Source: Stegostoma tigrinum (Eukaryota). Taken from it: 64,000 nt of DNA. Shown piece by piece: positions 2,024 to 62,842 of the stretch; position 1 is the first letter of the stretch, and each line of letters begins with the position of its first letter. Position numbers and translations under genes: made by a program. The notes under the pieces were generated by a model that did not search any database, was not told the DNA's origin, and worked only from the letters and a program-made list of their open reading frames with translations. The stretch spans positions 19,202,792 through 19,266,791 of the forward strand of contig NC_081367.1 in the NCBI RefSeq assembly GCF_030684315.1, in the 5' to 3' direction.

Positions 2024-2085
2024 ATTTGAGATTGACCTGGTGAGGAGCTGGATCCAAAAGTCTTTTTAACATCTTCCCATGTTGC
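2024..2085 (-). CDS. USP18: USP18-like protease, penultimate exon (ATWEDVKKTFGSSSSPGQSQ)
   Basis: tttttttag acceptor, gtaagg donor, 62 nt, phase 0 in. WEDV..TFG matches recalled USP18 SWEDIQCTYG. The terminal exon (expected AYLLxY) was not found in 1-2023. Confidence 0.8.
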
Positions 2086-2807
2086 CTAAAAAAAGCAGAG
2101 ATCTACAGTGTTCATTATATAATTGAACTGATACAATCTGAAAATTCACATACAACAGTATTATTAGTCAAATAACACAGGTTTTTGAGAGACCTTGTGT
2201 TTCTCCTGACTTCTATAATCCATGCGCAATACAATTTTGATCAAAATGCACTTGTGTGTGACACCAACTCCACAAAAGTAATTATTAACTGAACAAAAAA
2301 AAACTTAAAAATTTGGATTTCACTTAAATGTCACAAATCAGTATTTTTGGTACAGTGGTGGGAGTTTCACAGAACTGATGTATAGTTTGAGATTTTAATT
2401 ATGTCCTAAGAGTTTTTCAGAGTGTTTAAATAGTTTTGATTGTAAGTATTTCAAGCAAAGAGAAGAAATACATTTTAATCAATCAAGTGAATAAACTAAC
2501 TCGTATTTTGGAACAAGGAAGCGCAATTTTGACAGTGTATATTAAAGCATGATGCACAGATAAATTAATTAGCTAAAATTGCATAGAACATCAAAAAATC
2601 ATCTGCCTCATAATGTGTGACTTCTGCTTCGGATTTATTTCTTCCAGCTAATATGTAAACAAGATTGGCAGACTGTACTTCAGGTAGTCAGGCAAAGTTT
2701 ATAAATAACCAGTCTCAAGTAGCCCATAACAGAAACAACTGTATGATCTGAACAATGGGAGTAGTATTTAGTTTAAGTGGTCTTATCTTAAATATATGAA
2801 TACTTAC

Positions 2808-2939
2808 TCCCGTAACATGTTCATCATTGAAACAGTACCACTCTATTTCCTGAATATTCCTTATATAAGCATAATAATGGCCAAAGGATGCAATATCCTG
2901 ATGAACAATCACAGAGATGAGTTCGTATTGTGGGATATT
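2808..2939 (-). CDS. USP18: USP18-like protease, His-box exon (NIPQYELISVIVHQDIASFGHYYAYIRNIQEIEWYCFNDEHVTG)
   Basis: ttgcag acceptor, gtaagt donor, 132 nt, phase 0/0. Carries the catalytic GHY and the FND motif. Confidence 0.95.
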
Positions 2940-3336
2940 CTGCAATGGGTAAAGCAAATTATTTAGTAACAATAGATGTATAACACATTTAACATTTAAA
3001 AAATGATCCAAGCTACAGAAGGCATAAGTAAGAGTGATGCTGATTCAGGGTAGGGGAATTGAGAAAGAGCAATCAAAGTTGAAAAATTGTTTCCTTTTAA
3101 CATTGGAGAGAACAAAAATGGCAAGATTGAGTTCTCTCCCAAAATTACTCAATCAAAAGAGTTGCCTTCAATCATGGGAAAATATGTAAGGCTAGATCAG
3201 AGAAACTGCATTCAGAAAAACAGGAAGAGATTGCAGAGTACGAGGAGACTAGGGCATCAGGCAATTTATGAATGACTTAAAAAATTTCAATTTATTACAT
3301 TGGAGAAAGGGGGCACTAGTTTAGATGAACAAGACT

Positions 3337-3775
3337 AGGATGGTAGATTTGTGGGATTCAGAATGGAAGTGGATTTATGGGGCCAGGGTTTTGTATAATC
3401 TAGAAATATAGTGGGTGAGAAAAGCCTCTCCACTGCATCTTGGCGGCAGCCACCCCAAGCTTTAGTGTGTCCCTCAGCACATAATCCTGGATCTTGGAGT
3501 GCACCAGTCCGTGACATTCTGTTGATGTCAATCTTTGCACTGGAATACCAATTATTTTTGGGCAGACTTTCACTGAGTTGATTATTCTCTGGATGTAGTT
3601 GATGATTTTCTTGGGAACAGGGAACAGCCCATAGAGCACAGAGTCCTGTGTCACAGAGCAGCTCAGGATGGATCTTGATAATAACTACTGTCTCACTCCT
3701 TAAGCCTTCTTTGAATTGGAGCTGTGTAACAATCTCTTCCCCACCACAGTCATCTCGAGGGTAGTAAGCGTGAAG
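3337..3775 (-). mobile_element. L1/Tx1-clade LINE, ORF2 C-terminal fragment
   Basis: RIINSVK...ECHGLVHSKIQDYVLRDTLKLGVAAAKMQW resembles the recalled C-terminus of fish/shark Tx1-type ORF2. Confidence 0.65.
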
Positions 3776-3784
3776 GATATGAAA

Positions 3785-5525
3785 GATAATGGTCCGAGAA
3801 GTAGTTGATGCATTGGTGATCATCTTTCAAGATTCTATAGAGTCTGGAACAGTTCCTGTACATTGACTGGTAGCGAATGTAACCCTAATGCTTTAAAAAA
3901 ATGGGAGGTATAGAGAAAACAGAATTGTTGACTGTTAGCCCAACGTTGATGGTCGATACAATGCTAAAGTCGATTACAAAAGATTAACCAGCAGAGCACA
4001 TGGAAAACAGTGACAAAATCGGACAGAGTCAGCACAGATTTACAAAAGGAAAATCATGCTTGACAAATCTGGAATTTTTCAAGCATGTGAAGTTTATAAG
4101 ACCAATAGATGTAGTTTACTTAGACTTCCAGAAGGTTTTGATAAGGTCCCACATAAAAGATTAGCTTGTAAAATTAAAGCGCATGGGATTGGGGGTACTG
4201 TACTGACATGGATAGAGAACTGGTTGACATACAGGAAACAAACAGTAGAAATAAATGGGGCTTAAGTAGCAGGTAGTGACTAGTGGGGGTACAGCAGGAA
4301 TTATACTTAGACCCCAACTATTTACAATATAAATAATTTAGATGAGGGAACTAAATGTAACATCTCCAAATTTGCAGATCGCACAAAACTGGATGGAAGG
4401 CAGAACTGTGAGGGTGATGCTAAGATGCTTCAGTGTGATTTGGGCAAGTTGAATGAGTGGGTGAATGCATAGCAGATGATGTCCAGTGAAATATAGGAAC
4501 AAAAACAAAGTTGCTGGAAAATCTCAGCAGCACTGTAAGCATCTGTGAAGAAAAAAACAGACTTAACGTTTCGGATCCAGTGACCCTTCCTCAGAATGGG
4601 TTCTGGGGAAGGGGCAACTGACCCGAAATGTTAACTCTGTTTTCTCCTTCACAGATGCTGCCAGACCTGCTGAGCTTTTCCAGCAACTTTGTTTTTGTTC
4701 CTGATTTACAGCATCCTGTAGTTCTTTCAGTCTTTATACAGTGAAATATAGTGTGGATGAATGTGAACTTGTATACTTTGATAGCAAAAACAGGCAGGCA
4801 GATTACCTGAATGATAATTGACGGGAAAGGGGGAGGTGCAACAAGACCTTGGTATCCTGTACACCATTCACTGAAAGTAAGCATGACGGTGGGGTAGGTG
4901 ATGAAAAAGGCATATGGTATGCCAGGCCTCATAGCGTGTAGATTCAAGCACAAGAGAAGGGATGTTTGCTGCAATTATACGTAGCCTTAGTGAGACCATA
5001 CTTGGGTACTGCGTGCAGTTTTTTTCTCCTTATCTGAGAAAGGATGTTTTGGCTATGGAGGAAGTGTAACAAAGGTTTCCCAGACAGATTCCTGGGATGG
5101 CAGGACTGAGGTATCAAAAAAGGTTGGATTGGTGAGGACGATATTCTCTAGAGTTTCGAACTATGAAGTGAACCTCATGGAATCCCATGAAATTCTAACA
5201 GGGCAAGAGGGGGTAACACAAGAAAGATGCTACCAATGATCAGGGGGTGCAGAATCAGGTTCACAGACTTAGGAAATGGGCTAAAACATTAAGGGCTGAG
5301 ATGAGGAGATATGATTTTACCCAGACAGTGGTGAGCCTGTGGAATTGAACTTCTAAGGAAATAGTTGACACTAAAATGCCGAGTGTTTTCAAGAAGAAGT
5401 TAGATATTAGGGTTAAAGGCATTAAAGGGTATAGGAGAAAGCAGGAACAGAGTGGTGAGTTAGATGATCAGCCACGAGTAGACTCAAATGTCGTCGTGGC
5501 CTACTTCTGCTCCTATTTTCTATGT
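3785..5525 (+). mobile_element. CR1 LINE RT and 3' end, interrupted by a mini-Penelope
   Basis: FDKVPHKRLACKIKAHGIGGTVLTWIENWL and KFAD-like motifs; the 3' tail ends in ctcctattttctatgtttct. Confidence 0.85.
4497..4738. mobile_element. Palindromic mini-element built from inverted Penelope-like termini
   Basis: Arms aaagttgctggaaaatctcagcag and ctgctgagcttttccagcaacttt; 13-bp TSD cagtgaaatatag at 4484-4496 and 4739-4751. Confidence 0.75.
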
Positions 5526-5569
5526 TTCTTTGGTTGCTTCTTATCCAACAGAGAGCCCTCTAGAGGTAA

Positions 5570-5992
5570 CAAAGTGTGGAGCTGGATGAACACCGCAGGC
5601 CAAGCAGCATCTCAGGAGCACAAAAGCTGACGTTTCGGGCCTAGACCCTTCATCAGAGAGGGGGATGAGGAGAGGGTTCTGAAATAAATAGGGAGAGAGG
5701 GGGAGGCAGACCGAAGATGGAGAGAAAAGAAGATAGGTGGAGAGGAGAGTATAGGTGGGGAGGTAGGGAGGGATAGGTCAGTCTAGGGAGGACGGACAGG
5801 TCCAGGAGGCGGGATGAGGTTAGTAGGTAGGAAATGGAGGTGCCGCTTGAGGTGGGAGGAGGGGATAGGTGAGAGGAAGAACAGGTTAGGGAGGCGGGGA
5901 CAAGCTGGGCTGGTTTTGGGATGCAGTGGGCGAAGGAGAGATTTTGAAGCTTGCGAAGTCCACATTGATACCATTGAGCTGCAGGGCTCCCA
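5570..5992 (-). mobile_element. Penelope-like element, 5'-truncated 3' end
   Basis: Colinear with the 3' part of the GIY-YIG element at 17552-19149; 16-bp direct repeat agccctctagaggtaa at 5554-5569 and 5993-6008. Confidence 0.85.
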
Positions 5993-6481
5993 AGCCCTCT
6001 AGAGGTAATGGTCACTCCTGCGGCTACGTCACTATAGTTCGAAGGTGATCTTCCTCCTGATTACTGCGGCCTGCTTAACTGACTGTTTAAATTAAACTTA
6101 GTGTGTTTTTTTAGGGTGAGTCATTCATTTTTCATTTAGCAGCAGCAATGATGACAGCCTATAATGGTGGCTTTGTCAAGGCTGCAATGTTTCTGGCTGC
6201 TTAACTATGTTGGCAGCACTGGCAAGTAAGATATCGCTCTCGTTCACTTGCCGTTCATGGTGACAGCCTTTAACTAGGCCAGAACTGGTAAAATGCCACC
6301 CTAGGCTCCTGACAATGGCCTGTGCTGGGTTTGACCCAGATTGTGGTCCCGGCGACAGAGCTTCTCAACTTGAGAAAAGTCAGCCCTTTGTCAATGTTTG
6401 AATAGGTTGAAATGGAAGGTCAGTCACTGTGATCTGGAGAATGGAAAAATTCACACACTGCCTGCATGCCTAAAAACACAC

Positions 6482-6640
6482 CTTGAGGTTAGGAAATTCT
6501 TTTTTGCAATTCTCCGAGTTGATGCTTTCTGGAAATTCCATATAATTATTGTTTTTGACCACTTTCCTCAAGCTTGCAGCAAAGCCAAAGTGTTTTAGCT
6601 GTAGACATAGTATTTGTGGCCAAGAACGCACTCTGTAGCC
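6482..6640 (-). CDS. USP18: USP18-like protease exon (GYRVRSWPQILCLQLKHFGF...MEFPESIN...NLK)
   Basis: ttcaacag acceptor, AAG|gtgtgt donor, 159 nt, phase 0/0. Contains the USP PxxLxxxLKRF-type box and the FP motif. Confidence 0.9.
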
Positions 6641-7239
6641 CTGTTGAAGAGAAAACAATTGTCAGAAAAGAAGCATTTAAAATAATTTTCATACTAGACT
6701 AAGCATTACTGAAATTAAAAGAAAGCCAAAAAACACCAAGTCTAGTTGTAAGTTGTATCCTACATCACTGGGAAGCTAGTGGTATAATGGCAATGGTACT
6801 GGACCAAGCTAACATTCCGGAGACATGGGTTCAATTGTCATCTTGGCAGCTGGCGAAATAGGATTTCGATAGAAAATGGTGAATCGTAAAAACAAGCCTA
6901 ATGCTGACTGTATAATCACTACTGATTGTCACAAAATCAGGTCTGGTTCACTCATGTCTTTTACGGAAGAAAAATCTGCCTTCCCTACCCAGTCTGGTCT
7001 ACATGTATTTTCAGATCCTCAGCAATATGGTTGACTCTTAGCTGCTCTCTTGAGCAGTTAGGGATGGGCTATAAATGATGACCATCAATAAATGATGGCT
7101 ATAAATAAATGATGTATGCTCACATCCCAAAAAAGATTTTTTAAATTACTTTTCAAATACAGAAATGGCAAATGCCATACTGACTGTTTGACATAAATCT
7201 AAATTGAAATATTCATCTATTTCTTAAGTCAGTACTTAC

Positions 7240-7335
7240 ATGTTGTGTCGTTGTCTTTTCTCCACATTGGTCACAATAGCATTTGTTATCACCATCTAAA
7301 TTTTGTGATTGAAAGAAGCCATTCAGGGAATTCAT
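7240..7335 (-). CDS. USP18: USP18-like protease, zinc-ribbon exon (MNSLNGFFQSQNLDGDNKCYCDQCGEKTTTQH)
   Basis: actag acceptor, gtaagt donor, 96 nt, phase 0/0. CYCDQCGEKT matches recalled USP18 CFCENCGKKT. Too short for the ORF track. Confidence 0.92.
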
Positions 7336-7669
7336 CTAGTTAAACATAAATGTTTTCAATGTTAAACCAGCAAAAAAAATCTGGTTTACATATTCTGGAC
7401 AGGGACATTAATGCAATCTAACTTTAAACATATTATGGATAGAAGAGACAATTTGTCAAATTATCAAACATAATTTATATTTCAAAGTGAATTATTCCCA
7501 GATACTGTTGATTCCATGGCCAGTTTCACAATAGTTATGATATTGGGCACTTTGATAGTTATGCCTACAAACATCTAACATTATAGATCAAAAACTCTAT
7601 TTGTTGGAGAAAAAAGTACTTTTTTCACCCCATACACTTGTTTAGTGATTTGGTGATGCTAGGTATTAA

Positions 7670-8890
7670 GACCATAAGATACTACAGCGGAATTAGGTCA
7701 TTCAGCCCATCAAGTCTGTTCTGTCATTTGATCACGGCTAATTATGTTTCTCAACTCCATTTTTTTTACCTTCTCCCTGTAACCTTTGATCACCATAGGT
7801 GATCAAGAACCTATCTGTCACTGTCTGAAATACACACAGTGACTTGGCCTCCATAGCCTTCTGTGGAAACGAGTTCTATGGATTGATTAACCTTTGGCTG
7901 AAGAAATTATTACACATCTCAGTTCTGAAGCTCGTGCAATCTCTGAGGCTGTGCCCTCAGGTCCTAGCCTGCCTGGCTAGTGAAAACATCTTCACGACCA
8001 CTCTATCTAGGCCTCACAGTGTTCTGCACATTTCAATGAAATACCCCGTCATGTTACTAAAGCCCATCAAGTACAGACCCAGAGTCCTCAAATGACAAGC
8101 CCATCATCCCTTGTGACCAGACTTGTAAATCTCCTCTGGGCCCCCTCTGTGGCCAGCAATTCCTTCTTTAGACATGGCACCCAAAAACTGCTCACAATAT
8201 TTTCAAATGCAGTCTGAGCACACCTTTATACAGCCTCAGCAGTACATCCTGTTCTTGTATTCTAGCCCTCTTGAAATAAATGCTAACGTTGCATTTCCTT
8301 TCCCAACTGCCACTGAACTTGCTTGTTAACCTTAAGATAATCCTGAACTAGAAGTCTTTAAGTCACTTTGTGCTTCAGATTTCTGAAGACATTCCACATT
8401 TAGAAAATAGTCCATGGCTCTATTTTCATACCAAAGTACATAGCTCATACTTTCCCACATTGTATTTTGTCCAGTACTTCTTTGCCAGCTCTCTAGCCCA
8501 TCCAAGTCCTTATGTAGACTCCCACCTCCTCAAAACTACCTGTCTTTCTACTTGACTTTGTGTCAACAGCAAAATTAGCAACGATGCCCGCAGTTGCTTC
8601 ATCCATATTGTTAATGTATAACATGAATAGCTATGGTTCCAAAACTGAACCCTGTGGAACTCCACCAGTCAGATTGCCAACCTGAAAAAAGGCCCTTTCA
8701 TTCCCACTATCTGCACTTTGTCAATCAACCAATACTCTAACCATGCCAGTATCCTGTCCTGACATGGGCCCTTACCTTTATTTAACAGCCTCCTGTGTGG
8801 CACTTTATCAAAAGCCTCTGGGAATCTAAATAAGTCATGTCTATTGGCTATCCTTGATATAACTCACTCGTTAGCTCCTCAAAGAATTTC
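7670..8890 (-). mobile_element. CR1 LINE RT and 3' fragment
   Basis: accataagat...ggtcattcagcccatc is a CR1 3' tail; gaaccctgtggaactcc is the reverse complement of GVPQGS. Confidence 0.8.
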
Positions 8891-9189
8891 AACATAATTA
8901 CGTGAATAAAGTTTAATAAATAGAGTATGACATATGAAAACATGAAATTGTTTATTTTGGTAGCTTGAATAAAAAAGAAGCATATTACATAAATGATGAG
9001 AGATTGCAATGCTCTGAGATACAGAAATCTACCACGTTAAAAATATTCACAGACCCTTCTTTAATTGCACTTTCAGGAAACAAATTGCAAAGACTCAGAA
9101 ATTTCTGTTTGGAAAATTATGCCATGTTGCATGAATCACAAAAGGGTATTACGCAGGTAAAGTAAGTAATTAGGATCACAAAATCCCTA

Positions 9190-9495
9190 AAGTGTGGAGA
9201 AAGGCCATTCGGCCAATCAAGTCTGCAGTGACCTCCAAGGGGCATCCCAACCAGCCCCATCCCTTCGCCCTATCCTCACATTTCCCATGGCTAATCCACC
9301 TGCACATCCCTAGAGACTATGCAGCAATTTTGTTTTTTAGCATGGTGAATCCTCCGAATCAGCACATCTTTGGATTGTGAGAGGAAATTCACACAGACAT
9401 GGGGAGAATGTGCAAAGTCCACACAGTCACCCGAGGATGGAATCGAACCCAATACTCTGTCATTGTGAGGCAGCAGTGCTAGTCACTGGACCATA
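9190..9495 (-). mobile_element. HE1-like V-SINE inserted in a CR1 3' fragment
   Basis: tgtgaggcagcagtgcta and ggaatcgaaccc are the reverse complements of the A/B-box head; cacacagacatggggagaatgtgcaaa is the core. Confidence 0.75.
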
Positions 9496-9984
9496 TTGTC
9501 ATTAGAATCCGTACAGTGTGGAAAGAGGCCATTTGGCCCATTGAGACAGTACCTATTAGGAGTGCTAATAAAATGTTATAATTTGTGGTTAAGGGAATTG
9601 AATACAGAAGGAGGTTATGTTTCAGTTAAACAGAACACTGGTAAGACCAGATCTAAAGAACTTTGCACAGTATTGGTCACCCTACTGAGAGAAGGATGTA
9701 AGTGCATTGGAAACAGTTCAAAGGCTATTTATCAGATTAATACTTGGAATGGATGGATTGTCTAATATGGAAAGGTTTGACAGGCTAGGTTTGTAGCTGC
9801 TGGAGCTTAGAAAAGCAAGTGGCAACTTGACTGAAAAACAAAAGATCCAGATAAGTCTTTTCAGGGTGAATATGGAGAGGATGTTTCCTCTTAAAGGAGA
9901 CCCTAAAACTAGGATTCATGGTTTAAAAATAAATTCTTTAAATTTAGTTGTTTGCCCATTTAAAATGAAAATGAGGCATAATTT

Positions 9985-12430
9985 CCAAGGACATTTTGGA
10001 GAGGGTGCAGAATATTCTCAAAGAGGACAGGGACCAGCAGGATGTCATTGTACACGTTGGAATTAATGATCGAGGAACAGAAATGGATGAAATTCTGAGG
10101 AGAGGGATAGTGAAGAAAGAGATCAGTCTGAGACCGGTACAGTTGGGAAAAGGAGCAAGTCAAACAGTCATACAGCGAGGAACAAAGCAAAGAATGAGGC
10201 AGGACTGATAAATTAAACTACATTTATTTCAATGCAAGAGGCCGGACAGGTAAGGCAGGTGAACTCAGGGCATGGTTAGGAACAATGGACTGGAATATGC
10301 AGCAATTACAGAGATGTGGCTCAGGGATGAACAGGGTTGGCAGCTTAATGTTCCAGGGTATGGATGCTATAGGAAGTATAGAAAGCGGGGCAAGAAAGGA
10401 GGGGGAGTGGCATTTTGATTAGGGATAACATCACAGCTGTACTTAGGGAGGATATTCCTGGGAATACGTCCAATGAAGTTATTTGGGTGGAAATGAGAAA
10501 TAAAAAAGGGATGATGGCCTTATTGGGATTCTAATATAGAACCCCCAACAGTCAGCAGGAAATTGAGAAACAAATTTGTAAGGAGATTTCAGTTATTTGT
10601 AAGAGTACTAGGGGTGGTTATGGTAGGGATTTTAACTTTCCAGACATAAGCTGGCACCACAGTAGTGTTAAGGACTTGGATGGAAAGGACTTTTTTTAAG
10701 AGTGTACAAGAAAATTTTCTGATTCAGTATGAGGATGTACCAACTGGAGAAGGTGCAAAACTTGATCTACTCTAGGGAAATAAGGCAGGACAGGTGACTG
10801 AGGTCTCAGTGGGGGAGCACTTTGAGGCCAGTGACCATAATTCTATTAGTTTTAAAACAGTGATGGAAAAGGATAGACCGGACCCAAAAGTTAAATTTCT
10901 AAACTGGGGGAAGGCTAATGTTGATGGTATTAGGCAAGAACTTTCAGAAATTGATTGGGGGTGGATGTTTGTCGGTAAAGGGACTCCTGGAAAGTGGGAA
11001 GCCTTCAAAAGTGAGATAACAAAAGTTGCAGAGACAATATGTTCATCTTTGGATGAAGAGTAAGGCTGGTAGGTGTAGGTAATATTGGATGACCAGAGAA
11101 ATTGAGGTTTTGGTCAAGAATAAGAAGGAAGCATGTGTCAGGTATAAACATGAGAAAGCGAGTGAATCTCTAGAAGAGTATAAATGCAGTAGGAGTATAC
11201 TTAAGAGGGAAACCAGGAGTGCAACTAGGAGACATGAGATAGCTTTGGCAAATCGGGTTAAGGAGCATTCAAAGGGATTCCACACATATGTTTACAACAA
11301 AAGGAGTGAAAAGGACCCCTTAAAGATTACCTACATGTGGAACCGTAGGAGACGGGGAGATACTAAATGAGCATTTTGCATCAGTGTTTACTGTGGAGAA
11401 GAACATGGAAGACAGAGAAGGTGGGGAAATAAATAGCGACATCTTGAAAAATATCCATATTATAGAGGAGGAGGCCCTGACGTCTTTAAATGCATAAAGG
11501 TAGATAAATCCCTGGCACATGATAGGCATGCCCTAAATCTCTGTGGGAAGCTAGGAAAGCGATTGCTGGGCCCTTTGCTGAGATATTTGTATCATCAACA
11601 GCTGCAGGTGAGGTGCCGGAAGACTGGAGGTTGGCTAATATGGTGCCACTATTTAAGAAAGGTGATAAGGAAAAGCCAGGCTGCTGAGCTTGACATCAGT
11701 GATGTGCATGTTGTGGCGGGAGACAGGATTTACATGTATTTGGAAAGGCAAGGACTGATTAGGGATATTCAATATGGCTTTGTGCTTGGGAAATCGCATC
11801 TCGCTAATTTGATTTTTGAAGCAGTATTGAGGAGGATTGGTGAGGGCAGTGGACATGATCTATATGGACGTCAGTAAGGTGTTCAAGAGGTTCCTCATGG
11901 AAGGCTGGGTAGCAAGGTTAGATCACATGGAATACAGGGAGAACTAGCTACCTGTATACAGAACTGACTTGAAGGTAGAAGACAGAGGTTGGTGGTGGGG
12001 TGTTGCTTTCCAGGTTGGAGCCCTGTGACCAGCAGTGTGCCACAAGGATCAGTGCTGGGTCCACTGCTTTTCATCATTAATATAAATGATTTGGATGAGA
12101 ATATATGAAGTATGGCTAGTAAGTTTGTCAATGACACCAAAGTTGGAGGTGTAGTGGACATCAAAGATGGTTACCTCAGAGCATAATAGGATCTTAATCA
12201 GATGGATCAATGGGCTGAAGAGTGGCAGATGGAGTTTAACTTTGCAAAATGCAGCACCTCACATTTGACTAAGGCAAATCAGGACAGGACTTATACACTG
12301 AATGATAAAGCCCTGGGGAGTGTTGCTGAATGAAGAGACCTTGGAATGTAGGTTCATATCTCCTTGATAGTGGAGTTGCAGGTAGATAGGACAGTGAAGA
12401 AGCCATTTGGCATGCTTGTCTTTATGATTC
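9985..12430 (+). mobile_element. CR1 LINE, long decayed copy (ORF1 esterase end, APE endonuclease, RT)
   Basis: DVIVHVGIND (SGNH-type ORF1), SDHNSISF (APE) and cacaaggatcagtgctgggtcca (PQGSVLGP); many stops and frameshifts. Confidence 0.85.
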
Positions 12431-13793: not shown

Positions 13794-13943
13794 TACATTC
13801 TGATAACATTTCTCCGATGAAGGCTCATAAAGTGAAAGAGGAATAGTGAGCATGTGTCCAAACTGCTGGAATTCATTTTGGCATTTTAAACATTTTCTAT
13901 ATTCCTCAGTGGTTAGCACATGCAAATCCTCAACAAATCTGTT
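13794..13943 (-). CDS. USP18: USP18-like protease exon (NRFVEDLHVLTTEEYRKCLKCQNEFQQFGHMLTIPLSLYEPSSEKCYQNV)
   Basis: ttctgcag acceptor, gtaagt donor, 150 nt, phase 0/0. CxxC and MLTIPLSL match recalled USP18 CVDC...MLTLPLSL. Confidence 0.93.
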
Positions 13944-19149: not shown

Positions 19150-19150
19150 A

Positions 19151-40792: not shown

Positions 40793-40854
40793 AACTGCAG
40801 CTCTGAAATATTTACAGAAGCTGCGGTCTTTGTCATCGTTTCAGAACAGGGAGA

Positions 40855-45276: not shown

Positions 45277-45282
45277 AATAAA
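45277..45282 (+). terminator. Polyadenylation signal of UBL copy 1
   Basis: AATAAA 240 nt after the stop, followed by T/GT-rich sequence. Confidence 0.55.
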
Positions 45283-50277: not shown

Positions 50278-50775
50278 ATAATAAAATGTGAGGCTGGATG
50301 AACACAGCAGGCCCAGCAGCATCTCAGGAGCACAAAAGCTGACGTTTCGGGCCTAGACCCTTCATCAGAGAGGGGGATGGGGAGAAGGTTCTGGAATAAA
50401 TAGGGAGAGAGGGGGAGGCGGACCGAAGATGGAGAGAAAAGAAGATAGGTGGAGAGGAGAGTATAGGTGGGGAGGTAGGGAGGCGATAGGTCAGTCCAGG
50501 GAAGACAGACAGTTCAAGGAGGCGGGATGAGGTGGTAGGTAGGAACTGGAGGTGCGGCTTGAGGTGGGAGGAAGGGATGGGTGAGAGGAAGAACAGGTTA
50601 GGGAAGCAGAGGCAGACTGGGCTGGTTTTGGGATGCAGTGGGGGGAGGGGAAGAACTGGGCTGGTTTTGGGATGCAGTGGGGGAAGGGGAGATTTTGAAG
50701 CTTGTGAAGTCCACATTGATACCATTGGGCTGCAGGGTTCCCAAGCGGAATATGAGTTGCTGTTCCTGCAACCAC
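50278..50775 (-). mobile_element. Penelope-like 3' fragment (duplicated at about 59080-59617)
   Basis: Translates as LQEQQLIFRLGTLQPNGINVDF, the end of the GIY-YIG ORF, followed by the terminal region. Confidence 0.85.
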
Positions 50776-52817: not shown

Positions 52818-52829
52818 AAAAGTGAAACT
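52818..52829 (+). promoter_or_regulatory. IRF-E/ISRE-like element of UBL copy 2
   Basis: AAAAGTGAAACT, identical to copy 1. Confidence 0.65.
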
Positions 52830-52921
52830 GAATGCACCAATGGTATTTGCAATTGATCTTGAAAACTACGCACCAAATAGATTGCAAGTTCCAGTCTATA
52901 CAGACAGATACAGGCCGGAAA

Positions 52922-53066
52922 ATGGGGAAAATCTATGAAGTATTTGTGCTGGGATTGAAAGGGGAAAGACTAACTGTTGATGTTTCACAATCTGAGACAG
53001 AATTTCACGCAATGCCCGTTCACAAGTTTAAGGAGCTCTTGCTGAAGAAAATCCCTGGAGGAACAG
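52922..53066 (+). CDS. Ubiquitin-like protein (PGG type), copy 2, exon 1
   Basis: Same as copy 1 except I17L (ATA to CTA). Confidence 0.88.
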
Positions 53067-53666
53067 GTACATGGGCAATAATTGCATAAAAGAGTAGCCT
53101 TGTCAAATTCGTAACAATAATCAGCTAAAGAATCGAATGGTTAATCACATCGCCTGGTGGTACGGGTTGAAAATTAAACTGCATGATACCGATTCAAATC
53201 GGTGGATTTTTAAGCGTCTACTCCAAACATTAGAATTTAGCTTTCCGGAGGGATGCGGGGTCTAAATCTATTTAAATTTAACATTGGAATAAGAACTAAC
53301 CATAGTGTGTACTGGTGATAATGGGAACTGCAGATGCTGGAGAATCCAAGATAATGAATCCAGCATCTGCAGGTCCCATTATCACTGATTCCAGCATCTG
53401 CAGTTCCCATTATCACTGATTCTTGGATTCTCCAGCATCTGCAGTTCCCACTATCACTGATACAATTTTAACCACACTGCGAAGACTCTTCCAGGGATGC
53501 ACCCTCTCAGATGAAGGGTCTAGGCCCGAAACGTCAGCTTTTGTGCTCCTGAGATGCTGCTGGACCTGCTGTGTTCATCCAGCCTCACATTTCATTATAG
53601 TATGTACTGAGTTTTTTTTCAGATTTGTTTATTCTTCTCCGTTTCTCTTTGTGTTTTATGGATTAG

Positions 53667-53839
53667 CCGGGGCAAACGAATTGCGCCTTCTTTTTGCCGA
53701 AAAACATTTGGAGGATAACAAAACATTCTCTGACTACAACATCAAGGATCAATCAACAATCCTTTTGGTGTTACGTCTGCCCGGTGGAGTGGTACAGAGA
53801 GAAGGTTTCGGAGGCCTTATCATACTGCTTAAAAAATGA
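53667..53839 (+). CDS. Ubiquitin-like protein copy 2, exon 2
   Basis: Translation identical to copy 1 exon 2, ending [22 protein letters not shown]. Confidence 0.92.
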
Positions 53840-56800
53840 CATTCCAATTACCTGATGGATCTGTCCAATCGAACTCTGAAAACCCGAAATCGCTATGTTA
53901 TTCGAGGAAGCTGACATTACCGAAATGTTAACGTCACTGCGTGTTAATTACTTTAGAAATATCTTTCATAGCATTAGTACGTATGTGCTATGATAAATCA
54001 CAACTTGTATTTTAACATTTAGCCTGTAGAAGAGCTTGTTTATTTGTTCTCTCCTCATAAGTGATCTTTTGTATTCCTAATAAATTTCACACATTGGCAA
54101 TTTATATAATTATGATGATTTGTTTTAGTTTTACAGTGTTGGGTAGTGGCTCAGTGGCTTGTCCAGCCTTTATGGAGGGTCAGTTAAGAAACAATCTAAG
54201 TTATCTGTTTCTGGAGTGATATGTAAAGGCAGGCACTTTTCCTTTCTAAATGTTGACTGAAAGAGATGGCTTTTTAAAAAAAAGTTGACAGTTTTATGGT
54301 GACCGTTGCTAAAACTGACGTTTAATTCCAGATTCATAATGAATGTTCCAAATTTAAGCTCATCATATGTGATTAACATACAAGTAGATTGGCTGGCAGC
54401 AGAAAACAAAGAGTATGCATAAACCAGAGATCAGCAAGATGTGATGTGTGGGGTCCTGCAATTATCTACGCTGAGCCGTTTTCACAACCTCAATCAGTGA
54501 TATAGTTGGGGATTGAAGGAATAGTGGCAGATGACATAAAGCAAACGAGGAAAGCATATTGTGAAGAGGTAATAGGAACTGCAAATGCTGGCGAATCTGA
54601 GATAACAAGGTGTAGAGCTGGATGAACACAGCAGGCCAAGCAGCATCTTAGGAGCAGGAAGCTGATGTTTCGGGCGGAGACCCTTCATCAGAAATGGGGG
54701 AGGGGAAGGGGGTTGTGAAATAAATAGGGAGAGAGGGAGACGAGGATTGAAGATGGCATAAAAAGGCTGCAGAGGCTGTACATAAGTTGAGCAAATGAGC
54801 AAAAAATTGGCAAATACAGTATAATGTAAATATAATAGAAAAATATGAAGTTGTTCATTTGGGAAAAATGAATGTAAATGCGTGTATAATTATATATTAT
54901 ATAAATGGAGAACTGCGCACAATTACAAGTTACAGAGGGACCTAGATGTTCTTGACATGTCACAAAAAGTTTGTATGCAAGTAGAGCACGTGATTAAGAA
55001 AGTTAATAGAATGATATTCTTCATTATGAAAAAATTTGAACATAAGGCTAAAGATGTGATGTTTCAGTCATACAGAGCATTAACAAAGCATCATCTCAAA
55101 CTCTGTGAGGTTTCCGTCTCCTTACTCAAAGACGGATGCAAATGCATTTGGAGGCAGGTCAGAAAAGGTTTATTAATTTGAGACCTGGAAAGAGCAGGTT
55201 ATCTTATCGGAAAGATTTGGCAGATTGGCTTCTTTTCACTAGAAATTAAAACAGTGAGGGATGATTTGATTGAAGTCTTTAAGATCCTGGATGATCTTGA
55301 CAAGGTGGCCAGGAAAGGATTTTGTAGGTGAGTGCAGAACTAGGGGACACTGTTTAAAATTAGGGCTTGATCTTTGAGGACAGGGATGAGGAGAATTTTT
55401 TTCTCTCAGAATGTTCTCAGACTTTTGAACACATTATCTCAGGAGGTGGTGGAAGTGTGTCATTGAATATTGTTAAGACAGATATGGATAGATCCATGTT
55501 AGGCAAGGTATCAGTGGTTATTGGAATAAATGGAAATGTGGAATTTGGATCATGAATGGATCAACTACAATCTGTTAATGGTAGAGCAGCTTGAAGGATT
55601 GATGTCTACTTCTGTTCCTGTTTGGTATCTTTGTACGTATATTCGTACTTTGATTTATACTTCCGTCCCACACATTTGCTTGAACATTAAGAATACTAGT
55701 CCAGTGGCATTTGCACTACACTACAGCTGATGAAAATGATGATAACAGTCTATAGCATTTTGAGATTCTAAAATCCAACTGCAAAGTGCACAGACTTAGA
55801 CTCAAGAAAGGAACGGTTCATATTGCATGAAACCTAAATCCTAAATACTGACTTTGTCACGGAATAAGTTCAGTGATTAGAAAGTTGTTTTCTTTGATAT
55901 ATGCCAGAATCATAACTAGCAAGTCTTCAGGAAAGAAAATCTGGATCTTCGGGGAGCAGCAATCATCATTAAATTTCAGCTCCACTCAAACTTATACCCT
56001 GATTCAATGTTGCTTTGAGTTTCTTGCCACGTCTTGTGTGACCACCTTTCCGAGAAATGCAGAAAGCAACAACTTCTCAGAGAGCTCAGTCACAGTGGAA
56101 TAGAGTTTGCTCCTCTTTTAATGCTCTGCTGGAATGGGTGCAAGGATAAATACATGAACATGAATAGGTAAGATAGATAAATGAGTATGATAAGTGGTCA
56201 ACTTGGTGAATTAAGTAGGTAGGTGGATTGGTAATGGCTGGGTAGGCAGATGTTTAAGGTGTTAGGCAAGTGGAGTGCCTAGGTCAAGGGTCAGTCAGAC
56301 ACAGGGAGAAGGTGCAAACACCACACAGACAGTTGCCCAAGAGTGGAATTGAACCCAAGTCCTTGGTGCTGTGAGGCAACAGTGCTAAACACTGAGCCAC
56401 TGTGAAGAAGCACAAGCAACAGAGACATTCAACAGTTCAGACTACATCTGCTGAGAAATTAGTCAAGTATAATGCACTGCATGTTGTATTTTGGAATAGA
56501 TTCCAGATATGACAACTTTGTATCATTAAGACAGGTATATGACATCATAACATATGTCCTTCTGGAGTAAAAATGCAGGCCTCACTTTCACATTCTTTCT
56601 ATATAATGGAGTTATTGTAGTCAATTAGTTATGTGTGTGTATGTGTACTGTAGTAACATCAACAAACACAGAACTTCAGATTTATTTGCACATCTGTGAT
56701 ATTATTAGCCTGTCAAAAGATAATGTAAATAAACTTAAAGATATCTCGCTCAACAGAATCTGTTTATCGGTGGTTTATAGTACGCAGGGTAACGTAAACT

Positions 56801-59800
56801 GAAAAGTACAAATAGCATCTTTGCTTATAATAATTTTGTCAACTGACTAATCATGATCTATCAATTGTTGCTCTTTTATCTGATGAATGTCTCTGTCATC
56901 TCTGTTTTTTCCTTTTGAATAATTGGCTATGATATTGACAAAGATGCATTTCCTGACCAGAGGGTTGGAGTTTTAGTCAACGCATCGGCACACATTTTTA
57001 AAAATGGGATGCCAATCAAGATGTCAGTGTAGAGGGGTGGTTTGAAGCAAACTACTGCTGATGCTAGCGTTCCAGGTCCCGAACCATGCAACTCCATGGT
57101 GGGGTTTGGGAAGGACGTTGAACTGATGCTTGACATTGCAATGAGTCAGATCAAAGGATGATGTCCGAATTCTGACTGACGAGTGGGTGCAACCACTGAG
57201 TGTTTGTGGAGGTGTTTTGGATGGAGTACTTCAATATGGGAGGGATGTTATGGGGTCTATACAAGGGAAGCAGGTAGTTTGGAGCATCAAGAGGGTACAC
57301 CTGCTGGCCGTGCTGTAAAAGCAGTTATGTCTTCCCCAAAACTGTCTTTTCCTTCCAAGATCTAGGGAACTTGAATGGTCAGGATTCAATCTGCAAATGG
57401 AAGTTACCATATGATTGCAACCTCATTATTTCAATGACAACTCGCTTCCAGGGAGTGGGTTAGCTGCTCTCCATCTTGTGTTTTGCCTCAATTAAACCCA
57501 AAATAAATGGTTGTTTCATCATCAGAGAAGAACAATTTAAAGACCATTATCCTCAAATTCCTCAGCTCATGGAAGAGTTGAGTGTAGTTATTCACTTCAA
57601 GGATGTTGATGTTACTGGCAACGGCAGCCTTTATTGGCTCCCTCCTCATTTAAAATGTTCTGGTAGCCTTCTCTGTTGAACAGTTCCTGTGGTGTAGCTA
57701 TCTTCACAGAGCTGTTGTGGAGAGTTTTGCTAGATTTCTATTAAGTTCAGATGAAGAAACAATGATTTATGCCCAAATCAGGACATAATGTAACTCGAAG
57801 AGGAATTTCGAGTGGTGAATATACCTATGCCCATCCAGAAGGGCTATTCTCCTGTTTTTATATATTTACATAGAATGGACTCAGAACAACCCCCAACCCA
57901 ACCCTTACATTTCCCTGGCCCTACTATCCCTCATTCAGCTTCACTTGTACAATGACCATGTGTTGTTAGCCACAGCACAGTTTTATTTCATTCTCTGCAA
58001 TGTTTGTTGCATTGTAGCAACACATAGGCTTTATGGTCGATGGACTGCAATGACCAATACTATGGGTTATCTCCTAACTTACCAGGATTCCAAAAGTATT
58101 GCCACTGAATTTCTAGGTTACTGCCATTTAAAATAAAACACACAAAATGAGGAGGAAATGTATAAGCCAATGTAATTTAATATATCCCTGTTAATTGAAG
58201 TGAACTTTGAAATCAGGAACAGGGGAAAAAGAACTATGAAACAAATGCTATATGGGTGTAATCTTCATATCAAACAATCTCCAATTTCCATAAACACCAA
58301 CTCTTACTGGAAAACAAAACCAGAGTAAGAGTGCCATTTCAAGTATTGTAGTCCTAGCTGAGAGTAATACTGCAGAAGTCAGCTGTCAAAGTAAAACCTG
58401 GCATACATTACAAGTTTCATTTTTAATTTGTTTACTGTGGAGGTCAGTTCCTGTACATATTTATAAGGGGATGCCAATGTACTTTTAAAAAGAGAACATA
58501 AGCATTTACTACAGTACAAAGAAAAAAAATCTTAAACTTCAGTACTCAAGTCAACAACAATTAGAATGATCTCATCACTTTAATATCAGCAATATCCTGA
58601 CAAAAACTCAAACCTCAGTGAAAGGCTACTTTTATCACCCTGCTAAACCTTCTTGCTCAGTTGGCAGAGCTGCAGTTGTTTTCCACACAGCAAATTTCAG
58701 CAGTTATGCCTCTTCCCCCTGCATCAAATTGCTTTCAGTTTCTTTTCTCTCTCACTGGTGCAAGTAAAATTAAAGTAAAGAAACACACAAAAAATTAGCT
58801 CCAAGTTGGCTTGCTGGTCATTTAGCAAATATCACATGACTTCTTGCTAATGCTGTTTCAAAATCAATGTTTTTAATTGGCTGAACATTTTGTAAAAAGT
58901 CAGATCTTCACAGAACTGGAATCAAAAATCCATTTTCCCCATTTTAGAATCCAAGTTCTTAGATATTATGAAGCTTCATAAGTGCCTGTTTAATGGCTGA
59001 CACAGTCTGCACAGGTATGCACACACAGCAGAGGTAGAGGTCACATGACTACAGAAAACCAACCATACACCAAGTAAAAGATAATAAAATGTGAGGCTGG
59101 ATGAACACAGCAGGCCCAGCAGCATCTCAGGAGCACAAAAGCTGACGTTTCGGGCCTAGACCCTTCATCAGAGAGGGGGATGGGGAGAAGGTTCTGGAAT
59201 AAATAGGGAGAGAGGGGGAGGCGGACCGAAGATGGAGAGAAAAGAAGATAGGTGGAGAGGAGAGTATAAGTGGGGAGGTAGGGAGGCGATAGGTCAGTCC
59301 AGGGAAGACAGACAGTTCAAGGAGGCGGGATGAGGTGGTAGGTAGGAACTGGAGGTGCGGCTTGAGGTGGGAGGAAGGGATGGGTGAGAGGAAGAACAGG
59401 TTAGGGAAGCAGAGGCAGACTGGGCTGGTTTTGGGATGCAGTGGGGGGAGCGGAAGAACTGGGTTGGTTTTGGGATGCAGTGGGGGGAGGGGAAGAACTG
59501 GGCTGGTTTTGGGATGCAGTGGGGGAAGGGGAGATTTTGAAGCTTGTGAAGTCCACATTGATACCATTGGGCTGCAGGGTTCCCAAGCGGAATATGAGTT
59601 GCTGTTCCTGCAACCACGAAGTAAAAACGCATTTCTCTGATCATCGCTCTTTTTGTAAATGTACGAGAAATTGCATGGGCTATTATTTATATTTATTAAG
59701 CTCTTCCAAGTAAGTATTATAATTGATCAAAAGAAAATTATAATTCATTAATCAAACTGTGTGTAAACACTTGCCATTCCATTCCATGGTCTCTGTCTAT

Positions 59801-60449
59801 GCATTACATACATAGTCCATAGATCACACAAACGACTTAAATCCTAACTGAGCACGTGCACATTGTTATTAGCTGTTCACCTGTTAACAACTCCTCAGTC
59901 CTTGGGTAGTGTGCTGTCGCTGGGGAGTGTCACTCTTGTGGAAAGTGTTGTTGCCATGGTCACTGGGGTTGCCGATCCAATTCTATTGTTAGGAAATGAT
60001 GGACTGCTGAAGCTGATGGTCATTCTGTACTCAGTGCAAGTGGTGTGACGAAGCCTTCCTGATGCGTTGCCGAGATCAAAGGCACAGCTTCTTTTGATGA
60101 GGATAGATGCCTGCAATTGTCTGGATATATCATAATTATTCAATTATGGGTGACAACTGGACTAAATGGTCAAATGTTGCCATGTGGTCTGCTTTTTGGT
60201 GAGATATTTCAAAGTTTATTCAGTAAATGTCACCATAAACCCATAAGACTTCTCTTCCATTGAGGAAGATGGCTGGTGGTGGCTTAACCTGAGGGGCAGC
60301 ACACTGCAGGCAAGGGGAGAGGTTGAGAAGGAAGAACCTTAATTGTAACCACAGCTGGCGCAGGACTTGAACTCATGCTGTTGGTATGACTTATTATGCG
60401 ACCCCTAGCTACACGCTGACTGTCTCACTGATGCTGAGGTCTGATGACT

Positions 60450-60870: not shown

Positions 60871-61922
60871 CTAGTCCAATTGCAAATATTCAGATTATTA
60901 ACTAATTCTGACAAGATAACCAGTTTCTGCAGGAGTGAGCAAGACTACTCTCAGCTTCATCCATGCTCTATCTGCAATACCATGTGTCATAAGAGGTTCT
61001 TTAACTTGCTTAACTTGGTATTTGTTCCAAGCACTGCATTGACTAATGTGATGCTTAATCTCATCACTTCTGTTTGGCTAGTTAAATATTTCTTTTCCCT
61101 TCCTTAGATCAGACTCAGTTCTTTGAAGGCTTCAGATGCACTTCAGCAACTCTTCTTATTTTCTTGGAATAATGATTCTATTTCCATACGTAAGTCCTTT
61201 TTGAAAACATTCATTATTTTTGGCCTTAGCAGCATTCTGCAGCACAGAATTTACCTGATCACCACTCTATTGGTAAAGGAAGTTCACTTCTTTTCAATAC
61301 TAATTGACCTATCCCATTTCTTTAGACTGTGGCTCCTGGCTCTGGACTTGAATCCTCTCACTATGAAGGTCCACATACTATTTGCTTCTTCTCCGCCTGT
61401 TGGACCTGCATATTTATTTTCAGTGGCTGGTGTACAAGGATACTGTATCTCTCACCTTATCCAATTTATCATCATTCAAATAATAATCTGTCTCCCTCTT
61501 TTTGGTTGCAAAATTGATAACCTCAAATTTATCAACATTATACTTAGTCTGCCATACATTTGCTCACTCACACTGTAGTACCTCTGCCTCCTCGTCACTG
61601 TTCACCCTCCCACCCCTGTTCTCTAATTGTCTCCTTGACATAGTAATGCAGAAAGCAATTTGTACTTACCAAGAATTCCTCCTTTACGGTATTACTGATT
61701 TGATGCGAATCTATTGAAGCTAATGTCCATTTTGACTACCAAGAAATAACAACAAGATGGCTGAAAAACCTGCTATCAGTATGTTAGTAGTCATCGTTGA
61801 CTGAAAGTTTAACTGGACCTGCCATATTAAAACTGTGGCTCCAAAGGCAGTGCAGAAACTGGGGGCTTGAGGACAAATAGTTCACACCCTGACTTTTTGA
61901 AGTCTTTTCAAACCTTGGAAAG

Positions 61923-61993
61923 TTCAAGTCAGGAAGATGGGGAGAAACCACAGGATGGAATCCTGTGGTTTCTCCCCATCTTCCTGACTTGAA
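61923..61993. repeat. Perfect inverted repeat, 34-bp arms with a 3-nt loop
   Basis: ttcaagtcaggaagatggggagaaaccacaggat-gga-atcctgtggtttctccccatcttcctgacttgaa. Confidence 0.95.
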
Positions 61994-62690
61994 GATGGAT
62001 GTATCTGTTGCAACAGACTCAAACTCTACAGCATAATTGTGACAAAAGCTTGTTTAATTGTTACCTCTACTACCAAGTGGAAAAGTCATTCCCTGAATTA
62101 GCAGCATTTCGTGCCTGTAGTGTGCATGACAGTGTAGACTGCAACAATTTACTCAACATGCAAAGCAATATCCTCACCAATAGACTCTATCATTCAGAAG
62201 GATACAGGCAGATTTTATGTAGAATCACCATAACCTCCAAGTTTTTCATTATATTGAAATGGGCATATATGAACATTTCTTTAATGTCATGGGCCAGTAT
62301 CCTGGAATCTAACACCATTTTGGGAGCACTGACCTATTAAGGAATGCAACAGATTAAAAAAAGCCCATCATCGCCAACCTTTTAATGAAACTAGTGATGT
62401 ATAATAAACACATTTCGGCAGTTTGTCAGCACCCCAATGTCAAATATAAAAAAAATCAAAAAGTGTTTCCTGAACTTATGTGTTCAGCATTGTCTGCAAA
62501 AGCTATTATGCTAAGGATAATTTGTTACTTCTCGTCCGCTGCTATTTAATAAATGGTAACATTATATACAGAGAAATGGTATGCGACTTCTATTGAGGTT
62601 GGCTTATCATTTTCAAAATATGGTAAGAATTGTGTTGCGCAATATCATTTAATTAGCAGCAAGCGTTATCTTCCAGCAGAGCCTGCTGGA

Positions 62691-62700
62691 GGGGACTTCC
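62691..62700 (+). promoter_or_regulatory. NF-kB site upstream of the E3-like exon
   Basis: GGGGACTTCC fits GGGRNNYYCC; about 55 nt before ATG 62755 and followed by a TATA-like TTTATA. Confidence 0.5.
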
Positions 62701-62754
62701 AGTCAAGTTTATATTCAGTGTTTCCACTCAAAGATCACACTTCGCAGCTGTGAG

Positions 62755-62842
62755 ATGTCAACAGAACAACAACAAACTGAAAAGCGTTACGATCTAGATG
62801 ATCGTACGCTGAAATTTGTGAAAAGGGAAGATGAGATCACAG
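62755..62842 (+). CDS. First coding exon of a putative RBR-like E3 ligase (MSTEQQQTEKRYDLDDRTLKFVKREDEIT-G)
   Basis: ATG, 88 nt, strong G|gtaagt donor. EKRYD..D.TLKFV.R.D.ITG matches my recollection of the N-terminus of fish RBR-like proteins that continue RAEMSCGHAV. The rest was not found in the window. Confidence 0.6.

Follow-up and report, generated by a model that had tools for sequence, protein, structure and literature searches.

A Conserved Cluster of Ubiquitin-like, ARIT Ligase and USP18-Lineage Genes in Stegostoma tigrinum, Probably Acting Together in Antiviral Defence

Introduction

Does a shark genome hold an interferon-linked ubiquitin-like pathway apart from that of ISG15? The question is raised by a 64,000-nt stretch of Stegostoma tigrinum DNA (hereafter the window), which a sequence-only reading had interpreted as a self-contained system of a ubiquitin-like protein (UBL), its USP18-like eraser and its RBR-like writer. 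To our knowledge, ISG15 and FAT10 are the only immune-induced UBLs that are conjugated, and new conjugated UBLs are rare. The gene cluster is real and conserved, and several details of the earlier reading are wrong. The UBL, the RBR ligase (ARIT) and the USPs probably work together in antiviral defence and perhaps form a second tagging system beside ISG15. As had been presumed, the literature searched holds no paper on the linkage of these genes; the available main text of the Levraud 2019 preprint contains neither "194655" nor "212k18", and its supplements may list them.

Results and Discussion

Layout of the Cluster

The features of the window are collected in Table 1. The USP gene (USP-A) stands head-to-head with the first UBL gene, as described earlier, with an ATG-to-ATG distance of 3,328 nt. 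Both UBL genes have open, two-exon coding regions, but they are halves of one tandem duplication with 99.3% identity (24 mismatches in 8,345 nt, one coding difference). For this reason the pair counts as a single observation, and the duplication could be one of the assembly. A genome-wide search for the UBL gave two matches, both of them the window copies, and no further copy occurs in 414 kb around the window. The cluster extends beyond the window, where an intact RBR paralog (ARIT-2) and two further USP genes (USP-B and USP-C) follow 30–110 kb on. Duplication and decay are locally common: ARIT-1 is broken, USP-C truncated and the UBL duplicated. The description as self-contained does not hold, because none of 15 E1 matches and none of 50 E2 matches lies on the cluster contig; these searches were exon-wise and the counts are lower bounds.

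Table 1. Positions of the cluster features within the window
Feature	Position	Strand	Remarks
USP-A, USP18-like protease gene, exons 1-9 of 10	2024..40792	-	406 aa, open frame
USP-A exons 1-5	40792-40537, 29059-28963, 16405-16260, 15679-15600, 13943-13794	-	
USP-A exons 6-9	7335-7240, 6640-6482, 2939-2808, 2085-2024	-	
ISRE, perfect	40855..40866	+	64 nt upstream of USP-A ATG
Tandem duplication, 8.8 kb	42347..59990 (42347-51148 / 51149-59990)	+	each half with one UBL gene
IRF-binding element	44017..44027	+	103 nt upstream of UBL copy 1 ATG
UBL copy 1 (zgc:194655 family)	44120..45037; exons 44120-44264, 44865-45037	+	105-aa precursor, 89-aa domain
IRF-binding element	52819..52829	+	103 nt upstream of UBL copy 2 ATG; duplicate of the first
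UBL copy 2	52922..53839; exons 52922-53066, 53667-53839	+	one residue different from copy 1; RefSeq model P0001
NF-kB-like site	62691..62700	+	64 nt upstream of ARIT-1 ATG
ARIT-1 exon 1, broken ARIT-family RBR gene	62755..62842	+	remaining exons right of the window

The Ubiquitin-like Protein

The UBL is confirmed as a single-domain protein with an LRLPGG end, after which a tail of 16 residues follows. It matches the Pfam ubiquitin family (E 8e-11), shares 42% identity with ubiquitin, from which it differs by a loop insertion, and 32-33% with the shark's own ISG15-like proteins, at least five di-UBL genes of which lie on another contig (C34). The L8/I44/V70 patch of ubiquitin is kept. The suggested kinship with teleost zgc:194655-type UBLs is borne out by 58 family members, in which R42 (58/58), R72 (57/58), P74 (53/58), G75 (58/58) and G76 (57/58) are nearly constant and position 74 is non-Arg in all but one. 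A variable tail of 1-56 aa follows in every member, so that none ends at GG. The best 120 of 2,357 matches, a list crowded by polyubiquitins, include no tetrapod UBL. According to PMC12355090, R72 is the main determinant of E1 recognition and R74 also contacts the E1; since it does, P74 could hinder activation, to judge from the residues.

ISG15 is defined by two tandem UBL domains and an LRLRGG end, and the cluster UBL has neither. With the ISG15 system (ISG15, UBA7, UBE2L6, HERC5/6, USP18) the cluster has in common an interferon-induced di-Gly UBL, a tail that is processed in some species and a protease of the USP18 lineage; it differs in its single domain, its LRLPGG instead of LRLRGG, its RBR instead of a HECT ligase and the clustering of its genes. 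FAT10, likewise induced in immunity and dependent on an E1 that it shares, has two domains. NEDD8 also has one domain and a short tail, but carries Ala where the cluster UBL keeps R72.

The ARIT Ligases

The exon at the right end of the window had been assigned to an E3 gene, and it does belong to one of the RBR family, placed in the ARIT clade by the alignment in PMC12234341. As the working writer of the proposed system this gene fails: in this assembly exon 2 of ARIT-1 has 81 nt instead of the 98 of its paralog, which shifts the frame and brings in a premature stop. Sequence for the IBR and the catalytic Cys is missing, and repeats occupy the site. A functional ARIT-1 was rejected, as neither tblastn with seven orthologs nor an HMM run over 414 kb found an IBR or catalytic exon for it. 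The intact ARIT-2 lies about 50 kb right of the window and carries the RING2 catalytic-position Cys, which is present in 120 of 120 ARIT matches.

The model of the horn-shark ortholog (pLDDT 84) shows a RING1-IBR-RING2 fold whose top Foldseek matches are Parkin, ARIH2 and HOIL-1 (E 5e-6 to 1e-5); against HOIL-1L, VIA gives Z 8.9 and an rmsd of 4.8 over 146 aligned positions. RING1 departs from the canonical two-zinc C3HC4 type. Ligand positions 1, 2, 5 and 6 are mostly D, D/T, T/D and S, and positions 3, 4, 7 and 8 are kept (104/104, 104/104, 106/107 and 108/109), which suggests that ARIT functions in the manner of an RBR whose RING1 holds one zinc. The ARIT clade was named in 2025 as an interferon-induced RBR (Grimholt et al. 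2025, PMC12234341). The available part of that paper describes an RBR alone, virus- and IFN-induced and free of a transmembrane helix, as found here; reports its loss in hominoids; and suggests ISG15 as its substrate. That part makes no mention of the UBL, the fusions, the USP18-like link or the four zinc ligands that RING1 has lost. ARIT is present in alligator, platypus, elephant and monkeys.

The USP Genes

The USP18-like gene of the earlier reading is complete and carries the catalytic triad, but it is a paralog of USP18, one of three USPs in the cluster, and not its ortholog. USP-A starts with the ATG at 40792; its ninth exon ends at 2024 and its tenth lies about 3 kb left of the window. 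The catalytic Cys, His and Asn are all in place, two exons match Pfam UCH, and the His-box exon has mouse USP18 as its top PDB match (E 5.8e-11). A His-box search of the genome gave 11 matches, that on contig C20 being USP47 and that on C22 USP18. The C22 gene is flanked by PEX26 (Pfam E 1e-21) and an Ets gene, and no PEX26 was found among the long open reading frames in 414 kb around the window. We take human USP18 to adjoin PEX26 and, by a presumed offset of 45, assign the mouse numbering of the IBB-1 positions. At these positions USP-A has Glu/Arg/Gln and the C22 gene Ala/Leu/His, the latter corresponding to the residues Ala138/Leu142/His251 of the reference patch (bioRxiv 2024.05.28.596309). 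USP-A as the syntenic USP18 is thereby ruled out, the C22 gene being USP18.

In a tree of six sequences USP-A and true USP18 stand together with 90% support, and USP-B and USP-C fall with USP47 and the elephant-shrew USP; the polar IBB-1 residues of the cluster USPs are as in USP47-type enzymes. USP-A shares the catalytic triad, the USP18-type exon pattern and an ISRE promoter with USP18 and with the "USP18-like / USP47-like" clade of PMC12234341. The differences lie in the lack of IBB-1 and PEX26 synteny in USP-A and in the grouping of USP-B and USP-C with USP47. A search of the ESM Atlas gave nothing beyond clusters of the same family and generic USPs.

Promoter Elements and Expression

An ISRE/IRF motif near each gene had been claimed. 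This is the case for USP-A and both UBL genes, but not for ARIT-1, within 400 nt of whose ATG there is no ISRE/IRF element, only an NF-kB-like site. Position, not abundance, is what counts for these elements: the strict ISRE is not rare window-wide (one seen against 0.29 expected, reached by 26 of 100 shuffles), and the background chance of a motif is about 0.04 per 300 bp. As a positive control, five ISG15-like genes were scanned over the 1.6 kb that precede their coding regions; these contain no motif, probably owing to a non-coding first exon, so that the control carries no weight.

Co-induction of the UBL with ARIT by virus was found in trout, whereas that of the USP18-like gene was not. 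Both trout orthologs rise after VHSV (log2FC 2.6-4.6) in all five cell-type/line groups in which the UBL is listed, and the same supplement, in the part available, has no row for usp18 or usp47 (PMC12648952). In salmon treated with IFN-gamma, ARIT reaches log2FC 11.6-13.5 and the USP18-like gene 4.9. Crocodile and carp poly(I:C) studies yielded nothing on the cluster genes. In zebrafish, zgc:194655 and si:ch211-212k18.15 mark the macrophage cluster of isg15, rsad2 and usp18 (PMC11591593). In the table of infected versus control macrophages, neither gene is significant after correction. Another gene, si:ch211-212k18.13, presumably a USP, marks the same macrophage cluster in these data, not significantly (adjusted P 0.15).

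Linkage and Gene Fusions in Other Species

Conserved linkage of the UBL with ARIT extends from sharks to teleosts. The two share a contig in 17 of the 19 fish species in which both are listed (the misses are Pimephales and Anguilla), with consecutive locus tags in Megalops and Aldrovandia and near-consecutive gi numbers in Callorhinchus. A USP18-like gene stands beside ARIT in salmon, about 157 kb from ARIT.1, with USP18a 22 Mb away (PMC12234341 supplement). In the elephant shrew, the gene model P0247 consists of half a USP joined to ARIT.

Furthermore, a UBL domain is fused to ARIT in 35 of the best 150 ARIT-family representatives, among them those of Acropora (coral), two clams, amphioxus, Lingula (brachiopod), a chytrid and a sponge. 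The GG is kept in 24 of these 35 fusions and missing in 11, and R74 is missing in 22 of the 24 GG-bearing ones. Set against the near-invariant GG of the free form, these counts point to an extra constraint on the GG of the free UBL.

Predicted ARIT-UBL Complex

The predicted complex of ARIT and UBL (partner pLDDT 89) scores 0.81, against 0.00 for the best of three controls, and at least 95% of contacts are shared between the model runs. Of 65 eukaryotic pairs that lack a like complex, 39 reach the score mark, as do 2 of 126 unrelated pairs. Because like RBR-ubiquitin complexes have already been solved, the pass may show likeness only. In the modelled pose the I44 patch of the UBL rests on the RING1-IBR helix and its tail pairs with the IBR strand, away from the catalytic Cys220. 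This helix and strand form the RBR allosteric site (PMC9834252), at which ubiquitin activates Parkin, HOIP and HOIL-1 as well as RNF216; the invertebrate UBL-RBR architecture is a further likeness to these enzymes, whereas the ligand here would be a separate induced gene product and not a ubiquitin chain or phospho-ubiquitin. The interface columns are no more conserved than the rest (0.59 versus 0.65).

Functional Interpretation

Linkage, fusions and co-induction in fish uphold the proposal of an interferon-linked UBL-RBR-USP module apart from ISG15, but the writer named in it is a pseudogene and the eraser is not USP18 proper. That UBL, ARIT and USPs constitute a functional module is, in our judgement, likely; whether the UBL serves as a conjugated tag is nearly an even matter, leaning slightly against. 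Against the tag stand the modelled pose away from the catalytic Cys, the fusions devoid of GG, the presence of ARIT in tetrapods, none of which appears among the best UBL matches listed, and the broken state of the ARIT copy beside the UBLs. The full reading that we put forward, tentatively, is that of a new interferon-induced UBL modifier in jawed vertebrates that shares one cluster with an RBR writer of its own, having a one-zinc RING1, and with erasers of the USP18 lineage. The Arg74-to-Pro change would make it orthogonal to housekeeping deubiquitinases; it would have arisen when a UBL-RBR fusion, of the kind that occurs in organisms from chytrid fungi and sponges to amphioxus, came apart, and would have been lost toward humans. 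The old fusion gene would have split into neighbours in jawed vertebrates, giving a module of three gene types induced by interferon or virus. The IRF/ISRE elements, seen in the shark, would switch the genes on, as the induction of the fish orthologs suggests. A cluster USP would trim the tail and expose the GG, and a general E1 encoded elsewhere in the genome would activate the UBL, as we infer because R42, R72 and the L8/I44/V70 patch are kept. From an E2 it would then pass to ARIT's invariant RING2 Cys (here that of ARIT-2) for attachment to targets. With Pro instead of Arg74, the precursor and the conjugates would be protected from housekeeping deubiquitinases, and removal would fall to the linked USPs. 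Docking of the UBL on the allosteric site of ARIT is also probable and would result in feed-forward activation.

This docking could, however, be the whole of its function, a reading that we consider a serious rival, somewhat less likely than the tag: the UBL would be an activator (or brake) dedicated to ARIT, allosteric and non-covalent, acting in cis in the invertebrate fusions and in trans in vertebrates, ARIT would transfer ubiquitin or ISG15, the linked USPs would remove them, and P74 would stop the UBL from being cut or charged. The predicted pose on the conserved RBR site is consistent with this, as are the fusions, which recall Parkin, where an N-terminal UBL precedes the RBR, and which often lack R74 or the GG altogether. 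The polar IBB-1 residues of the cluster USPs and the absence of any free UBL ending at GG, unlike salmon and zebrafish ISG15, which do, point the same way. Against it, a near-invariant GG followed by an unconserved tail is the usual sign of processing, and any ubiquitin-like fold with the patch may score at this site, ubiquitin not being among the controls. Allosteric action is compatible with conjugation and does not exclude it.

The multi-phylum fusions and the shark-to-teleost linkage argue for a direct UBL-ARIT partnership, and hence against a mere co-regulated cluster of interferon-stimulated genes, held together by shared enhancers and descent, in which ubiquitin or the expanded ISG15 set would be the substrate of ARIT and of the USP18-like enzymes, and the UBL would stand apart. 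We regard this as unlikely, even though local duplication and decay and the grouping of USP-A with true USP18 speak for it. So does ISG15 itself, which in shark and salmon has Arg at the position of the human IBB-1-binding Trp; for this reason ISG15 as a substrate is compatible with the loss of IBB-1, and the cluster USPs could serve the C34 ISG15-like proteins. Less probable still is a tripwire, in which LxGG devoid of Arg74 is spared by host enzymes and cut by pathogen deubiquitinases, which read the LxGG motif, so that the UBL is unmasked or the ligase released in infected cells only. The non-Arg residue at position 74 in fusions and free forms alike, the ever-present tail and the induction of the genes by infection would suit it; the linked host USPs offer a simpler route of maturation.

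Conjugation of the UBL would mean that fish possess a second antiviral pathway of tagging, and a role as allosteric ligand would mean that a dedicated gene product switches on an RBR ligase. The cluster also offers a possible route to the origin of USP18 from a USP47-like enzyme. In salmonids the UBL, ARIT and USP genes figure among the transcripts that virus strongly induces, but under wrong labels, namely polyubiquitin, UBA52, RNF19A, ARI5 and USP47-like.

Gene Cluster Organization

The window occupies positions 19202792-19266791 of contig C17 (genome G000). The cluster proposed in the sequence-only reading is real, and it is bigger than the window could show: with 200 kb of leftward and 150 kb of rightward sequence included, it comprises three USP genes, two genes for zgc:194655-type ubiquitin-like proteins (UBLs) and two RBR ligase genes of the ARIT family. 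The gap between USP-A and the first UBL gene is 3.3 kb, and the receptor gene beyond USP-B is GPR35/55-like. A 246-aa ORF without a Pfam match (L067:3162-3899, +) lies directly left of the window, and an exon 140 kb to the left (L054:125-454, -) resembles EFHD1/2. Inside a USP-A intron, two inverted 1.4-kb copies of a retroelement fragment, 98% alike, occupy 17589-20568; a comparable 2.2-kb palindrome is located at 96017-98249, beyond the window. The names ARIT and "USP18-like" both date from 2025 and were given separately; a search of literature outside subscription journals and closed supplements found no publication on the UBL or the linked system.

Features of the cluster in window numbering, continued rightward beyond 64000
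Feature	Position	Strand	Remarks
USP-A	left end of cluster	-	10 exons, 406 aa, open frame, catalytic triad present
USP-A exons with LKRF/His-box changes	6482-6640 and 2808-2939		
Two UBL genes	right of USP-A		within 8.8-kb tandem duplication
ARIT-1	62755 to about 68000		broken RBR gene
USP-C	about 90600-100600	+	His-box exon not found
ARIT-2	112990-119973		intact gene for a 268-aa protein, the same as RefSeq model P0388
USP-B	about 171000-137400	-	Cys, QxD and His boxes
7TM receptor gene	L016:6845-7780	+	right end of cluster, beyond USP-B

The UBL Family

By the names of its relatives, the window UBL belongs to the zgc:194655 family; it is 42% identical to ubiquitin and 32-33% identical to ISG15-like proteins of the same shark. 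Fifty-eight members, chosen by name and length among the matches listed (including the best 120 of 2,357), come from sharks, rays, chimaera, coelacanth and bony fishes. Within this set R42, L73 and G75 (ubiquitin numbering) are invariant, R72 and G76 are each found in 57 and P74 in 53; the hydrophobic patch is retained, K48 varies, K63 is lost, and all 58 carry a tail beyond the motif. This conservation, a pattern only, would be consistent with a processed, single-copy modifier. Paralogs of catsharks and smooth-hound (P0157, P0167, P0203, P0225) show the motif changed to LAGG or LRGG and long acidic tails bearing Cys. An ISG15 expansion in zebra shark occupies C34:15.62-15.76 Mb (L021-L026, L034, L036, L041, L042, L044): it has no fewer than five ISG15-like di-UBL genes, which fall into two distinct types, each with an LRLRGG end followed by a short tail. 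Weak ubiquitin-family matches occur at C59:260-291 kb (four, clustered) and C5:128.96 Mb.

The ARIT Ligase

The cluster RBR family is the ARIT described in the accessible part of PMC12234341. Its 126 relatives, 120 of them listed, span sharks at one end and sloth, elephant and platypus at the other. Modelled with AlphaFold, the horn-shark ortholog matches the structures of Parkin, ARIH2 and HOIL-1. All 120 listed relatives have the RING2 Cys; the His two residues after it is present in none of them, yet 35 of the 122 representatives that were aligned do have it. In RING1 a single zinc site is left, together with the Ile/Leu, Trp and Pro through which E2 is commonly bound. The E3-like gene noticed beside the UBLs is an RBR gene, but it is broken in this assembly by two separate lesions: exon 2 is short by 17 nt, and repeats stand in place of residues about 121-222, which comprise the catalytic Cys and the IBR; ARIT-2 is the intact copy. 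Four further divergent ARIT-like exons (37-42% identity; L126-L129) lie at three places on C58 and at C19:13.70 Mb, two of them with Pro following the catalytic-position Cys. An ARIT-family domain is joined to a kinase as well as a UBL in the sponge record P0272, and to a Macro domain in P0369.

The USP Proteases

The expected USP18-like eraser exists as a USP gene with a catalytic triad, but true USP18 is elsewhere, at C22:558-587 kb, adjoining PEX26. It carries Ala/Leu/His at IBB-1, the ISG15-binding patch, and all three cluster USPs carry Glu/Arg/Gln (positions from the available text of bioRxiv 2024.05.28.596309). Since the Trp bound by IBB-1 is absent from fish ISG15, the altered patch is no proof of a new substrate. 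A six-sequence tree (90% support, six long branches) weakly suggests a grouping of USP-A with USP18, and of USP-B and USP-C with USP47 and an elephant-shrew USP. In USP-A, His replaces the usual Arg of the LKRF motif and Asp the usual Gly preceding the His box. Both positions lie along the channel that receives the tail of the substrate, and the substitutions may reflect altered specificity or decay. USP-C is likely decayed. Within C22:520-640 kb (L097-L108), USP18 has PEX26 on one side and an ETV6-like Ets gene on the other, and ISRE-like motifs stand in tandem at about 533.1 kb.

Linkage, Fusions and Induction

Conserved linkage is borne out: UBL and ARIT lie on contigs of identical length, hence on one chromosome, in 17 of the 19 species having both (tallied among the matches listed), with adjacent locus tags in two, and salmon USP18-like, ARIT.1 and ARIT.2 lie within 255 kb on chromosome 7 (available text of PMC12234341). 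One elephant-shrew gene model consists of half a USP joined to ARIT, so the two genes must be neighbours there. A profile search gave 1,234 matches; in the top 150 representatives, a UBL domain is part of 35 ARIT-family proteins, and a long N-terminal extension is present in 55, of which 30 have the UBL domain. Among 20 representatives looked up, fusions could be assigned to Acropora (15 members in the cluster, mostly of 341 aa), Ruditapes, Mercenaria, Branchiostoma, Lingula, Rhizophlyctis, Amphimedon and a loach.

USP-A, the UBLs and ARIT-2 have ISRE or IRF elements at -64, -103 and -253, respectively; for USP-B and USP-C, paired elements lie 5.7 and 6.7 kb ahead of the exon that encodes the Cys box. 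The supposition of such a motif near every gene holds for USP-A and the UBLs but fails for ARIT-1, which has none within 400 nt. Co-induction is seen in fish orthologs: trout UBL and ARIT, as labelled in the supplement, rise together after VHSV in 5/5 groups (PMC12648952, accessible part), and in salmon both virus and IFN-gamma raise the expression of ARIT and USP18-like (PMC12234341, likewise). Zebrafish UBL and ARIT mark an isg15-positive macrophage cluster, but are without significance in the infected-versus-control macrophage table (accessible data of PMC11591593).

Mechanistic Interpretation

Gene structures, motifs, conservation, linkage, fusions and the induction of fish orthologs are observed, whereas every biochemical step of the UBL/ARIT/USP mechanism is inferred. 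The system is not self-contained, as had been supposed: contig C17 gave no match for E1 or E2, so both must be borrowed from elsewhere. A borrowed E1 would activate the UBL, where R72 would allow charging and the loss of R74 may hinder it (available text of PMC12355090).

The leading reading, at slightly below even odds, is that the UBL is a conjugated modifier. That it acts solely as an allosteric partner of ARIT is a rather less probable account, on which a complex model of horn-shark ARIT with the UBL bears. The model passed (0.81 vs 0.00, runs agreeing in 95% of contacts, pLDDT of the partner 89), at a mark that 39 of the 65 true pairs and 2 of the 126 unrelated pairs reach, all of them eukaryotic; the predicted pose corresponds to the allosteric ubiquitin site in the available text of PMC9834252, remote from the catalytic Cys. 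Because similar complexes are already solved and the controls were without ubiquitin, the model shows fit, not specificity. Co-regulation of otherwise uncoupled genes seems improbable, and a UBL serving as a tripwire for pathogen proteases more improbable still. Conjugation of the UBL and its allosteric partnership with ARIT can both hold at once.
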